Below, one piece after another: positions 1 through 64,000 of a DNA stretch of 64,000 nucleotides (position 1 is its first letter; each line of letters starts with the position of its first letter). A model generated the notes under the pieces. It was not told where the DNA came from. It made no database searches and worked only from the letters and a program-made list of their open reading frames with translations. The stretch covers positions 203,956 to 267,955 of the forward strand of contig CP144850.1 in the NCBI GenBank assembly GCA_036689535.1, given 5' to 3'. Position numbers and translations under genes: made by a program. This DNA is from Candidatus Stammera capleta (GTDB taxonomy: Bacteria; Pseudomonadota; Gammaproteobacteria; Enterobacterales; Enterobacteriaceae).

Positions 1-1
1 T

Positions 2-445
2 TGATTAATTAATATCGTTAATGAAAATATCATAATAATACATGTATTATATATACAACATCCATATTTTGAATATTATTTACATAATAATTATAAAATA
101 GCTACTATTGTAATATGTAATAATACTAACAATAATTATCAAAATAAAAATAAAATAAAAAAAATAGCTATGCATTTAGCTGCTATTCCTTATAAATATA
201 TATATAAAAAACACATTCCTACTAAATATTTAAATGAATTTAAAACAAATATTATTAAAAAATATAAAAAAAAATATCAACAAAATATTTCTTTAAGTAA
301 ATATAAAAAATATTTAAATAATATGTACAAAAAAAATATATTTGTTGAACAATTATTTATTTTTAATCCTAAAATTACAGTTAAAAACTATTTAAATAAA
401 TATCATCTACAAATTCAATATTTATATAAATACAATATTAATTAA
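2..445 (+). CDS. tsf: Elongation factor Ts, C-terminal part (5' end lies outside the window)
   Basis: The frame is open from position 2. KIATIVICNN..IAMHLAA..EQLFIFNPKITVKNYLNKY aligns with E. coli EF-Ts RIGVLVAAKG..IAMHVAA..GQPFVMEPSKTVGQLLKEH. TAA stop at 443-445. Confidence 0.8.
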
Positions 446-578
446 TAATATATATTATTATTTATAATATAATTCAAATAAATAATAAATGAAGAATAAA
501 AATATACATCCGCTTATTTTTTAAAAAAAAGAATAAAATAAATTTTAATATTTAATGATATAATTAATTTTATAATAA

Positions 579-661
579 GGAGGTATGGCTGAGTGGTTTA
601 AAGCAACGGTCTTGAAAACCGCCGACGATTTCGTCCGAGAGTTCGAATCCCTCTACCTCCG
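579..661 (+). tRNA. tRNA-Ser(UGA)
   Basis: Acceptor GGAGGTA/TACCTCC, anticodon loop CTTGAAA, long variable arm, T-loop GTTCGAATC. No encoded CCA. Confidence 0.9.
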
Positions 662-687
662 TCTATTTAATTAAAACTCAATAAAAT

Positions 688-1431
688 ATGAACAATTTAC
701 ATTTAGAAAAAATAATTAATAAATACTTAAATAAACAATGTTATAAAGATATTGCCTATAATGGATTACAAATTACAGGACAAAAAAAAATTTATAATAT
801 ATGAATGGGAGTAACTGCTAACTTAAATCTGATTAAACAAGCAATATATAATAAAATTGATACTATCATTGTACATCATGGATTAATTTGGAATAATACA
901 CCTAAAAATATTTTTGGTATACAAAAAAAAAAAATTAAAAAAATTTTATTAAACAATATAAATTTATATGCTTGACATATCCCATTAGATATACATCCTA
1001 TCATAGGTAATAATATATTATTAGCAAAAATACTGAAAATAAATGTAATACATTATCCTAATTATAAATATCCACTATTAATAGGTAAAATAAAAAAAAA
1101 TATTAAATTAACAAATTTTCTTAATAAAATAAAAAAAATATTTCCATGAAATATTAAAGTTTATACAAATAATATATATAAATATCATAATATAGCTATA
1201 TGTAGTGGATCAGGTTTTTTATCTGAGAAATACATGATACAGAAACATTCTATTAATACTTATTTAACAGGAGAAATTAACGAATATATATTATCTATAT
1301 TAATAGAATATAAAATTAACATTATCCTTTTAGGACATCATTACTCTGAAATTTATGGAATTAAATTTTTAGGAAAATGAATTACAAAATATTTAAATAT
1401 TAATACTAAATTTCAAAATATACCTATATAA
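688..1431 (+). CDS. ybgI: Nif3-family metal-binding protein YbgI (GTP cyclohydrolase 1 type 2 homologue)
   Basis: Matches E. coli YbgI: YNGLQITG, VHHGLIW, NLYAWHIPLDIHP, LLGHHYSE. There are 4 in-frame TGA codons (for example LYA-W-H) plus one TGG. Confidence 0.85.
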
Positions 1432-1751
1432 TAGGTACTTAAATTTATTATTTATATTCAAAAAAAATATTTTTATATATCTTATTTATTAATAAATAAG
1501 ATAAAAATTTATAAATATAAATATATTTTTTTTACTTTACCTATATACTAAATTTTAAATTATTTTTGTATCATTAAATTAGTTATGTATTAAATACATA
1601 AAAAATTAATGTGATAACAATAATCATTAACACTAAATAATTAATTAAACAATATATCAATCAATAAATATATATACATTCTATTATATAGAATAATAGA
1701 TATTATGTTATAAATATATAAATTTATATATATAAAATAAATATTATATGT

Positions 1752-60467: not shown

Positions 60468-60896
60468 TTATTTATATAAATCTAAAAATTTTATAAAAAA
60501 TAAATAATTTTTTTCTTTCATAAAAGAAATAAATTTTCATTGAATATGATATTCTATACATATATTTGTAAATAAATTAAAATTATTAATAATTTTATTA
60601 TTATCAAACAATAATACATTATTCATATTTTGCATATCAATATATTGTAAAAGCTCATCACCTACAATAGTTAATACATTATTACTAAATTCTAACAAAC
60701 CTTTAGACAAAAAAAAACGTAATATTCTATGATGAGAATATAAATATAAAAATGTATGATGAACAAAAAATAATATTGGTGTATGATCAGGATAAATTTC
60801 TATATTATTAGATAGATTAATAATTTTAATAAAATTAATTAATTTTTTATAACAAATTATATTTTTCAATAAAATTACACAACAAAAATTTTTCAT
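60468..60896 (-). CDS. atpC: ATP synthase F1 epsilon subunit
   Basis: IEIYPDHTPIL..SKGLLEF..NVLTIVGDE aligns with E. coli LGIYPGHAPLL..SGGILEV..NVTVLAD. The start at 60896 matches E. coli spacing. The TGA at 60537 is read through, giving a TAA stop at 60468. Confidence 0.82.
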
Positions 60897-60918
60897 ATAT
60901 ACAGATCTCAAAATATAT

Positions 60919-62304
60919 TTACTTATTAATAATTTCTTCAATACTACCTATCATATAAAAAGCATTTTCATGATATTTATCATACTTACCACTTAAAATA
61001 GCTTTAAAACTATTTATAGTCTGTTGTAAAGTAACATATTTCCCAGGTCTATTAGTAAATATTTCACTAACAAAAAAAGGTTGAGATAAAAATTTCTGTA
61101 TTTTACGAGCTCTCATAACTAATAATCTATCTTCTTCAGATAACTCATCAATACCTAAAATAGATATTATATCTTTCAATTCTTTATATTTCTGTAAAAC
61201 AAATTTAACTTCCTGCGCAACTTTATAATGTTCCATACCTACTATATCTGGATCTAATTGATTACTATTAGAAGATAAGGGATCTATAGCTGGATAAATA
61301 CCAGAAGCTGCTATTTGTCTATCTAATACAATAATTGCATCTAAATGTGTAAATGTAGCTACAGTCGCAGGATCAGTAAAATCATCAGCCGGTACATACA
61401 CAGCTTGTATAGAAGTAATAGAACCTTTTTTAGTAGACACTATACGCTCCTGTAATAAACCTATCTCTTCAGACAAAGTAGGTTGATATCCTACTGCTGA
61501 TGGTATCCTACCTAAAAGAGCAGAAACTTCAGTACCAGCTAAAATATATCGATATATATTATCAATTAAAAATAAAACATCATATCCATCATCACGAAAT
61601 TTTTCAGCTACTGTTAATCCTGTTAATACTACACGAAAACGATTACCAGGAGGCTCATTCATTTGTCCATATATTAATGAAACTTTATCAATAACTTTAG
61701 AAGTACACATTTCCTGATAAAAATCATAACCTTCACGTATTCTTTCCCCAACTCCAGTAAATACTGTATAACCTAAATATTTAATAGAAATATTCCTTAT
61801 TAATTCCATCATATTAACAGTTTTTCCAACACCAGCTCCTCCAAATAAACCTATTTTACCACCTTTAATAAACGGACATATTAAATCTATAACTTTAATA
61901 CCTGTTTCTAAAATATTATTACTTATACATAAATCAATATATTTCGGTGGTTTACGATATATACTTCTATATTCTGTAGTTTTAATTTTTTGTTTACCAT
62001 CTATAGGATAACCTAAAACATTAATTATCCTACCTAATAAAGATTCACCTACAGGTATTATAATAGGATGACATGTATCAATAACCTTCATATTTCTACT
62101 TAACCCATAAGTAGATCCTAATGCTATAGTACGTACTATCCCTTCACTTAATTGTTGCTGTACTTCTAATTTAATTACTATTTTATAATGTTTAATAACA
62201 TTTAAAATATTTAATAACTTAGGATTATAAGTATTAGTAAATTCTACATCTACTATAGCTCCTAATATTCTAATAATTTTACCTATATATTTTTTTTCTA
62301 ACAT
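60919..62304 (-). CDS. atpD: ATP synthase F1 beta subunit
   Basis: Uninterrupted 461-aa [15 protein letters not shown] (Walker A), LFLIDNIYR, and strong identity to E. coli AtpD throughout. Confidence 0.98.
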
Positions 62305-62313
62305 ACTATTTAA

Positions 62314-63192
62314 TTACACATACAAATTAGATATTAATTCTAATAATTCATTAGTAACAGAAATTTGTCTAAATTTATTAGATAATGTAGTATACAAAGT
62401 AAATAAATTATTAGAACTTTGTACTGATCTATGCATTACCATAATTCTTACTATATATTCAGATAATATATTATTTAATATATGATAAGTAATCATAGTA
62501 TTAATATAATTAATTAATAAATTGTCAATATACTTATATATTTTAGTACTATATATATATTTAAGATTAACATTATTTAAATTTATCTTAATAGGTAAAA
62601 TTTGACTAATATTAGGTATAATATGATGTTTATTTATAAATATATTATTTACTAAATAAATAGTAACATCATAATTTCATTTAATAAAAATATTAGTAAT
62701 ATATACAGTAATATATCTTTTTATATTAATACCATATATAGTATCTAAATTATTAATATATAAAACCTTATATTTAATATTTTTTTTTTTAAACAAGATT
62801 AAATAATCTTTACCTTTTTTACCTATAATAATTAATGATATAATTTTATTTTGATATTTATTATCAATAATATATTTAATTAAGTATTGAAATAAATCTA
62901 AATTTAAATGTGCACAAAAACCATGATCTGTGGTCACTATAATATAAATATGATTTAATGTCTTTACTATTTTAGTATCTATTTGAACAAAAGGAATAAT
63001 ATATTCATAATATAAAAAATTTATTTTCTTATGTATTAAATCAAAATAATACTGATAATAATCATTATATATCTTATATTCAAAATATAATTTTTTATAT
63101 TTAGATAATGAAAGTAATTCTACAGATTTAGTTAATTTATATATATAATAAATACTGTTTTTTTTATCACTAATTTTTTTTATATTCCTCAT
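62314..63192 (-). CDS. atpG: ATP synthase F1 gamma subunit
   Basis: MRNIKKIS..IYKLTKSVELLS (E. coli [22 protein letters not shown]), TTDHGFCAHLN, C-terminal ..ISVTNELLELIS. Two pieces in one frame. Confidence 0.85.
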
Positions 63193-63239
63193 ATATAACA
63201 CCTTTTAACTAATATTAATATTATTATATATAATTATCA

Positions 63240-64000
63240 TTAGTTAGAAAAAAATTTTTTATTAAAATTCATTAAAATTTTTTTAATAGTTTTTATAATA
63301 TGTTTATTAACTAAACCATATTTATTTATATAATCTTCTAAAATGATATATTTATCATTAACATATTGATATAATTTATATTCATATATACTAATTTGTG
63401 TAATAAGAATATGATTTAAATATTTATATTTTAAAGCAAAAAAAATTAATATTTGTTTAAATAAAGATAAAGGTGAATAAGGAGATTGTTTTAAAACTTC
63501 TACTATTCTTTTACCATAATTTAAATAATATGTAGTATTAATATCTAAATTACTAGTAAATTGAGTAAAATGTAATAAATCATAATATTGAGATAATATA
63601 GTACGTAATGAACTTGTAACTAATTTCATAATAGGATATTGTGCTGATGTCCCCACTCTTGAAACAGAAATCCCAGGATTTATAGCAGGTTTAATACCAC
63701 TATGAAATAAATTAGATTCTAAAAAAATTTGTCCATCAGTAATAGAAATAATATTTGTAGGTATAAAAGTTGAAATATCACCATCATAGGTTTCTACTAT
63801 AGGTAATGCAGTTAATGAACCTGTAGTATTTGTCAATAAATAATTTCTATTATAATGCCTAATAAAATCAGCATTAACATAAGCTGCACGTTCTAATAAT
63901 CTAGCATGTAAATAAAAAATATCTCCTGGATAAGCTTCTCTACCTGGAGGACGACGTAACAACAAAGAAATTTGTCTATATGAAATAGCATGTTTAGATA
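63240..64000 (-). CDS. atpA: ATP synthase F1 alpha subunit, C-terminal part (5' end lies outside the window)
   Basis: [62 protein letters not shown]. The frame stays open to the window edge. Confidence 0.96.

Follow-up and report, generated by a model that had tools for sequence, protein, structure and literature searches.

The 64,000 nucleotides analysed here (hereafter the window; contig CP144850.1 of assembly GCA_036689535.1, positions 203,956 to 267,955 of the forward strand) come from Candidatus Stammera capleta, and within them UGA encodes tryptophan (Trp), for which it is the main codon, with termination via UAA and UAG alone. This bacterium descends from the Enterobacterales and lives extracellularly in tortoise leaf beetles as a digestive symbiont. 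For annotation, the window needs translation table 4 (code 4), as 36 of its 52 genes would be called pseudogenes under table 11 (code 11, the standard code). The assignment of code 4 to the window is correct but already known, having been published for Stammera since 2017 and being in routine use: the account of UGA-to-Trp recoding in this symbiont is that of Salem et al. (2017; cited in PMC10540940), and 50 Stammera genomes have all been annotated with code 4 (bioRxiv 10.1101/2023.12.12.571295). With table 4 as standard practice for Stammera, the finding is a correct diagnosis and not new biology. A sequence-only reading of the same DNA had arrived at this interpretation, which stands, but the novelty that it implied does not, because the recoding was published and Stammera genomes were already being translated with code 4.

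The residue encoded by UGA was read from alignments in which every TGA was masked as X, 36 genes being aligned by blastp to open reading frames (ORFs) of Escherichia coli K-12 and 15,372 columns tallied. Trp stands in E. coli opposite 82 of the 132 aligned TGA codons (62%), the same rate as for TGG (10/16, 62%), compared with a Trp background of 1.0% of aligned E. coli columns (binomial P ~7e-129 for the TGA result). Other residues opposite the 132 TGA codons include Leu (8), Val (7), Phe (6) and Gly (2), with Cys at none. Viewed from the E. coli side, 153 Trp columns were aligned, for which the window codon is TGA in 82 and TGG in 10. The sequence-only reading had named such an orthologue alignment as a check on its claim, and the TGA codons do cluster on Trp instead of falling on arbitrary residues. 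The six sites for which it had given positions are all TGA on the gene strand and all lie opposite an E. coli K-12 Trp, namely those in lepA (5824-5826, plus strand; CGEVG-W), ung (10363-10365, plus; LES-W-ARQG), rpoC (15260-15262, minus; NKPE-W-MIL), rpoB (19460-19462, minus; YRGS-W-LDFEF), rho (47282-47284, minus; QKM-W-ILR) and trxA, where the codon specifies the active-site Trp (48810-48812, minus; AE-W-C). A seventh, the Trp preceding AHLD in PepA, had been reported without a position and was located at 57192-57194 (plus strand; Y[KN]-W-AHLD, also opposite an E. coli Trp), the window protein reading YN-W-AHLD. For the remaining sense codons the standard residue is the commonest partner, save for a few rare ones (AGC, ATC, GTC and TCC, with 4 to 66 aligned columns) for which it ties or falls among similar residues. 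ATA aligned with Ile (917 columns) and AGA and AGG with Arg, consistent with the standard meanings that had been claimed for these three codons.

Codon content and reading frames point the same way. The gene set comprised 52 curated coding sequences (CDS), named via blast to E. coli K-12 orthologues and via NCBIfam, with only the highest-scoring ORF kept at each place because antisense ORFs of conserved genes match antisense E. coli ORFs. In this window of 19.5% G+C the CDS contain 167 in-frame TGA and 22 TGG codons, TGA accounting for 88% of Trp codons and being present in 36 of the 52 genes (69%). Their terminators are TAA (46) and TAG (6) and never TGA, and neither an internal TAA or TAG nor a frameshift was found in any of the 52. 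When TGA is counted as sense the number of ORFs of at least 500 amino acids rises from 0 to 12, whereas freeing TAG instead produces no change. Translated with table 4, the proteins have C-terminal tails as long as those of their E. coli counterparts and thus give no hint that translation stops at TGA. Among single genes, valS carries 26 TGA, tilS 13 and rpoC 8. Several particulars of the sequence-only reading are borne out by these data: TGA is the sole interrupting codon; rpoC, said to fall into at least 7 pieces under the standard code, falls into 9; and the three genes said to require table 4 do so, the longest table-11 piece of secE being 34 amino acids, trxA being split at its active-site Trp and atpC otherwise losing its last 22 residues. 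TGG still encodes Trp, as had been stated, judging from the 22 codons counted and the 10 of 16 aligned ones that lie opposite an E. coli Trp. A UGA read as Trp is the sole interpretation that agrees with the masked codon tally, the intact frames and the C-terminal ends. The only Trp codon of rpmB (29518-29730) and that of frr (38017-38565), both highly expressed genes, is TGG, which may hint that UGG is still read better than UGA, in a sample far too small to carry the point.

Protein and DNA identity place the window within Stammera, which NCBI classes in the Enterobacterales. A MiaB search of a genome collection holding one genome per species returned 86% identity to Stammera CP144822.1, 55% to two more Stammera genomes and about 45% to ordinary Enterobacterales. 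HinT and ProS have 100% identical counterparts on a 274,464-base-pair (bp) NCBI contig and in the Logan assembly of SRR23946976, and DNA identity to CP144819.1 (274,554 bp) is 86-89% over 20 kilobases (kb), the two being colinear. ProS clusters with Stammera and away from Buchnera and Sodalis, and the gene order is common to the window and six other Stammera chromosomes. The E. coli blocks lepA-lepB-rnc-era, secE-nusG-rplKAJL-rpoBC, ybeY-ybeZ-miaB, rseP-bamA-skp, rpsU-dnaG-rpoD, trxA-rho and atpAGDC are kept. The sequence-only reading had described the gene order as being of Enterobacterales type and had named Stammera as the Enterobacterales case of UGA-to-Trp recoding; the conserved operon blocks agree with the former, and by sequence identity the window indeed belongs to a Stammera lineage. 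GC skew is negative in all 4-kb bins (-0.16 to -0.26) without a change of sign and most genes are on the minus strand, indicative of a location within a single replichore.

To place the codon usage in a wider setting, eleven other Stammera chromosomes were compared at the hinT-proS or miaB region and in-frame TGA and TGG were counted in orthologues. TGA/TGG is 145/17 for the window (orthologue set), 54/6 for CP144819, 20/7 for CP144822, 40/1 for CP144853, 14/4 for CP144799, 33/2 for CP043978 and 19/0 for CP145602, all with code 4, as opposed to 1/54 for CP144787, 0/38 for CP144774, 0/49 for CP144777 and 0/16 for CP144771, which use the standard code. These counts independently reproduce the published split of Stammera into code-4 and code-11 genomes, the latter represented by five basal genomes in which prfB, the gene for release factor 2 (RF2), is kept (gTranslate preprint 10.64898/2026.05.24.727570). 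CP144790.1 (GCA_036689315.1) has code 4 with low TGA use, 2 TGA versus 14 TGG in five sampled genes, and the most weakened stem in its tRNA-Trp gene (trnW); it is assigned code 4 in the same preprint and may represent an early stage of recoding. At the positions of window TGA codons, the standard-code relatives have TGG in 147 of 239 comparisons and TGA in none, which is the most direct proof that UGA means Trp in the window. The sister clade has Trp-type codons at 91 of 101 such positions (82 TGA and 9 TGG). TGA served as the stop codon in 1 of 36 gene ends sampled in the standard-code relatives and is almost absent from them otherwise too, and this near-absence of TGA stops fits a codon-capture route.

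ARAGORN and Rfam identified 13 tRNA genes in the window, of which the sole tRNA-Trp (trnW; 54781-54853, plus strand) has the anticodon CCA; no tRNA-Trp with a UCA anticodon was detected by them in the 64 kb. The anticodon is CCA in all ten Stammera lineages read (the window and nine others). As previously reported, tRNA-Trp(UCA) occurs in no Stammera (preprint 10.64898/2026.05.24.727570), and the published Stammera genome lacks prfB, retains a trnW anticodon that still matches UGG and has UGA in 62% of its CDS (PMC10540940, Table 2). The window trnW has no encoded 3' CCA and the cca enzyme is needed for that reason. Its minimum-energy fold does not give a cloverleaf, because the D arm consists of A-U pairs alone, and the ARAGORN and Rfam structure was used instead. 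In this structure, U11-A24 and G27·A43 stand where E. coli trpT has U11·G24 and C27-G43, and the anticodon stem is reduced to 4 bp, the unpaired G27·A43 being followed by U-A, G-C, G-C and U-A. Two other tRNAs of the window are likewise mismatched at 27:43, tRNA-Ser(UGA) (579-661, plus strand) with A·C and tRNA-Gln(UUG) (25896-25968, minus strand) with U·C.

Among the ten lineages, G27·A43 is found only in the window and its sister CP144819. The stem is UUGGU/ACCAA, with five Watson-Crick pairs, in the four standard-code lineages (CP144787, CP144774, CP144777 and CP144771); within code 4, CP144790 combines a U27·U43 mismatch with a G30·U40 wobble, CP144853 and CP145602 have the G30·U40 wobble, and CP043978 has five Watson-Crick pairs. 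A 27:43 mismatch and/or a G30·U40 wobble is thus present in 5 of 6 code-4 lineages versus 0 of 4 standard-code ones, while A24, the base of the Hirsh-type suppressor, is present in all ten, standard-code lineages included. Variants of tRNA-Trp(CCA) with an unpaired top stem pair read UGA in E. coli, as does the G24A variant, and G:A is among the three commonest unpaired top-pair types (PMC13092985). The same 2026 survey proposes the 4-bp-stem mechanism for Zinderia and classes Stammera capleta as having a 5-bp stem, relative to which the 4-bp anticodon stem of the window's subclade may be new. How UGA is decoded with a CCA anticodon is under current discussion (PMC13092985), and the stem differs between standard-code and code-4 Stammera; we offer the stem observation as a testable lead and not as a result.

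We consider it very probable that the window is part of a chromosome of about 274 kb, from a Stammera lineage that came to use table 4 via codon capture and near-cognate decoding by the CCA anticodon. Extreme AT pressure would have caused UGA stop codons nearly to vanish, RF2 would then have become dispensable and been lost, and TGG would afterwards have drifted to TGA. The single tRNA-Trp(CCA) would read UGA by near-cognate pairing of C34 with the A at the third codon position, with RF2 no longer competing. U11-A24 may have been a pre-existing predisposition to UGA reading, and stem weakening, in the form of the unpaired G27·A43 in the window's subclade, a lineage-specific improvement of it. 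We infer both the codon-capture route, for which we draw on published work and on the relatives compared here, and the decoding step.

A number of points weigh against this scheme. The gene prfB is not within the 64-kb window, which covers only part of the ~274-kb chromosome, and although most code-4 Stammera lack it according to published work, it persists in some code-4 assemblies (preprint 10.64898/2026.05.24.727570). Code 4 occurs together with a perfect 5-bp stem in CP043978, meaning that it does not require a weakened stem. With all standard-code lineages belonging to a single clade, few independent events underlie the correlation between stem and code. Mismatches at 27:43 also occur in the window's tRNA-Ser(UGA) and tRNA-Gln(UUG), and C40-to-U is the direction favoured by AT pressure in any case. 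A24 is also present in standard-code lineages and therefore cannot be sufficient; a control for it was sought among the fetched loci, which included no AT-rich trnW from outside Stammera (for example, Buchnera). The shortened stem as a putative enabler of UGA reading is a correlation over ten lineages with one exception (CP043978). It is possible, though we advance it tentatively and doubt it more than we favour it, that Stammera presents a natural graded series of stop-codon takeover without anticodon change, with A24 first and the stems of code-4 lineages repeatedly weakened.

Of the competing explanations, the one that survives best concerns the decoder and not the meaning of the codon. UGA might be read by a cognate decoder in place of a structurally altered CCA tRNA, either a tRNA-Trp(UCA) encoded outside the window or a tRNA-Trp whose C34 is edited or modified (for example, in a lysidine-like manner by TilS). 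The window is 64 kb of about 274 kb, leaving room for the former, and for the latter tilS is retained (51073-52404) and C-to-U editing of tRNA-Trp C34 exists as a precedent in trypanosomatid mitochondria. The heavy TGA use of CP043978 in combination with a perfect 5-bp stem also favours a cognate decoder, as a weakened stem cannot then account for everything. However, we know of no bacterial enzyme that edits C34 of tRNA-Trp, the TGG codons still in use would need an unmodified C34, and AUA codons, which are abundant (917 ATA in the alignments, with Ile as their reading), require TilS in any case. Three papers moreover describe Stammera genomes as having no tRNA-Trp(UCA), and we regard a cognate decoder as unlikely.

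Less probable again, to the point that we give it little credence, is an ambiguous UGA, with RF2 present and active and Trp inserted by leaky readthrough in competition with termination. Such a state has a published intermediate in Providencia siddallii and would suit a tRNA that retains the near-cognate CCA anticodon, the reports of prfB in some code-4 Stammera assemblies and the transitional appearance of CP144790 (2 TGA versus 14 TGG). It is difficult to reconcile with the number of in-frame TGA codons in single genes (26 in valS, 13 in tilS and 8 in rpoC), since even 90% readthrough per site would yield only ~6% full-length ValS, or with TGA making up 88% of Trp codons and ending no gene of the window.

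The two remaining explanations were rejected on the codon tally and have, in our judgement, a negligible chance of being correct. A field of pseudogenes, in which the TGAs are true nonsense mutations of a decaying standard-code genome, would suit the extreme AT bias, the genome reduction and the breakage of nearly every long gene under table 11, but not the absence of internal TAA, TAG and frameshifts from 52 CDS, the location of 62% of TGA on conserved Trp at the same rate as TGG (82 of 132 masked TGA opposite E. coli Trp), the retention of TGA or TGG at 91 of 101 TGA positions in a sister lineage with 86-89% DNA identity, or the inclusion of rpoB, rpoC, rho, dnaE and several aminoacyl-tRNA synthetases among the affected genes. 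A sense meaning other than Trp, whether Gly (table 25), Cys or selenocysteine, has bacterial precedents in UGA-to-Gly and UGA-to-selenocysteine, but the residues opposite the 132 TGA codons are Trp in 82, Gly in 2 and Cys in 0, standard-code Stammera relatives have TGG at the same positions, and selenocysteine that depends on a selenocysteine insertion sequence (SECIS) element cannot account for 167 sites spread over 36 genes.

The reading of UGA as Trp extends over the 36 TGA-bearing genes, most of which were identified by blast to E. coli. On the plus strand these are lepA (5056-6840; 1 TGA, 1 TGG), lepB (6892-7836; 9 TGA), era (8600-9448; 1 TGA), ung (10030-10686; 5 TGA), tsaD (42508-43521; 5 TGA), tilS (51073-52404; 13 TGA), pepA (55824-57308; 4 TGA, 1 TGG) and valS (57327-59939; 26 TGA, 0 TGG). 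The minus strand carries gltX (3494-4924; 10 TGA, 1 TGG), trpS (10721-11704; 4 TGA, 1 TGG), rpoC (11720-15949; 8 TGA, 2 TGG), rpoB (15977-20020; 5 TGA, 1 TGG), rplA (20996-21667; 1 TGA), nusG (22142-22690; 2 TGA), secE (22696-23064; 4 TGA, 1 TGG), miaB (24384-25715; 1 TGA, 1 TGG), dnaE (29751-32987; 6 TGA, 2 TGG), bamA (33816-36290; 7 TGA, 1 TGG), rseP (36306-37703; 2 TGA), rpoD (38677-40248; 2 TGA, 1 TGG), dnaG (40389-42161; 4 TGA), cca (43534-44730; 3 TGA, 1 TGG), metG (45073-46704; 9 TGA), rho (47165-48433; 1 TGA), trxA (48573-48905; 1 TGA), proS (52397-54115; 6 TGA) and atpG (62314-63192; 1 TGA). NCBIfam supplied the identification of ybgI (688-1431; 4 TGA, 1 TGG), ligA (1752-3497; 3 TGA), prmB (26184-27059; 4 TGA), a peroxiredoxin C-like gene (28313-28912; 3 TGA) and a gene for an Nfu-domain protein, nfuA-like (54894-55127; 2 TGA), all on the plus strand, and of holB (27132-28127; 3 TGA, 3 TGG), efp (55130-55678; 4 TGA) and atpC (60468-60896; 1 TGA) on the minus strand. 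The last of the 36, nfo (49527-50381, minus strand; 2 TGA, 2 TGG), was recognised from the Pfam domain AP_endonuc_2 in its orthologues.

Some of the gene products depart from their E. coli counterparts. The thioredoxin encoded by trxA has the active site W-C-N-A-C, with TGA for its Trp, as compared to the canonical W-C-G-P-C. LigA, DnaE, MetG and ValS are shortened at the C-terminus relative to E. coli by ~90, ~85, ~135 and ~75 amino acids, respectively, and the PhoH-like YbeZ (23686-24291) has ~125 fewer N-terminal amino acids. The interval between pepA and valS is without holC. An rpoZ-like ORF (44812-45030, minus strand), recognised by eye from its alignment to E. coli RpoZ (RFxLVLxAAxRARQ), has no ATG near its start and probably uses a non-ATG start codon. 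Between bamA and dnaE, at the position of skp, lies an ORF of 202 amino acids (33163-33771, minus strand) with a signal-peptide-like start, for which an NCBIfam search gave no family match and which is probably a very diverged Skp.

The closest known system is the published Stammera capleta, with which the window shares a genus-level clade (judging from synteny and from protein and DNA identity), the reading of UGA as Trp, a trnW with anticodon CCA, a very low GC content and a genome of ~0.27 megabases, the proportion of genes with UGA being 69% in the window versus 62% in the published genome. The window lineage is nonetheless distinct from all Stammera genomes returned by the one-genome-per-species MiaB scan, and its 4-bp trnW stem with G27·A43 differs from the 5-bp listing of Stammera capleta in PMC13092985. 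Providencia siddallii PSAC is likewise Enterobacterales-derived and AT-rich, with trnW(CCA) and TGA at conserved Trp, but it keeps prfB, has UGA in ~20% of its genes and probably terminates some of them with UGA (PMC10540940), as opposed to the window with UGA in 69% of genes and at the end of none. The Hirsh UGA suppressor, E. coli tRNA-Trp with G24A, resembles the window trnW in having A24 with an unchanged CCA anticodon; that tRNA suppresses only partially, in competition with RF2, and A24 in Stammera is shared with standard-code lineages, making it at most a predisposition and not a mark of recoding.

Zinderia insecticola and Fastidiosibacteraceae XS4 have in common with the window UGA as Trp, no tRNA-Trp(UCA) and an unpaired top stem pair in tRNA-Trp(CCA) (PMC13092985), although they belong to other classes or orders and their recoding originated independently of that in Stammera. 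Within Stammera, in contrast, only some lineages have the top pair unpaired, and in the others the stem is perfect or carries a G30·U40 wobble. We liken the window trnW to the 4-bp-stem decoders (Blastocrithidia, Condylostoma, Zinderia and XS4) on just two features, the unpaired 27:43 position and the CCA anticodon. Were the stem weakening adaptive, reliance on a 4-bp-stem tRNA-Trp(CCA) would extend to a second bacterial lineage, namely the window's subclade within one genus-level clade, and the published entry of Stammera under 5-bp stems would be corrected. Across table-4 organisms a cognate tRNA-Trp(UCA) is usual but not universal, and the window, with its CCA anticodon, departs from that usage in the manner already known for Stammera and Zinderia.

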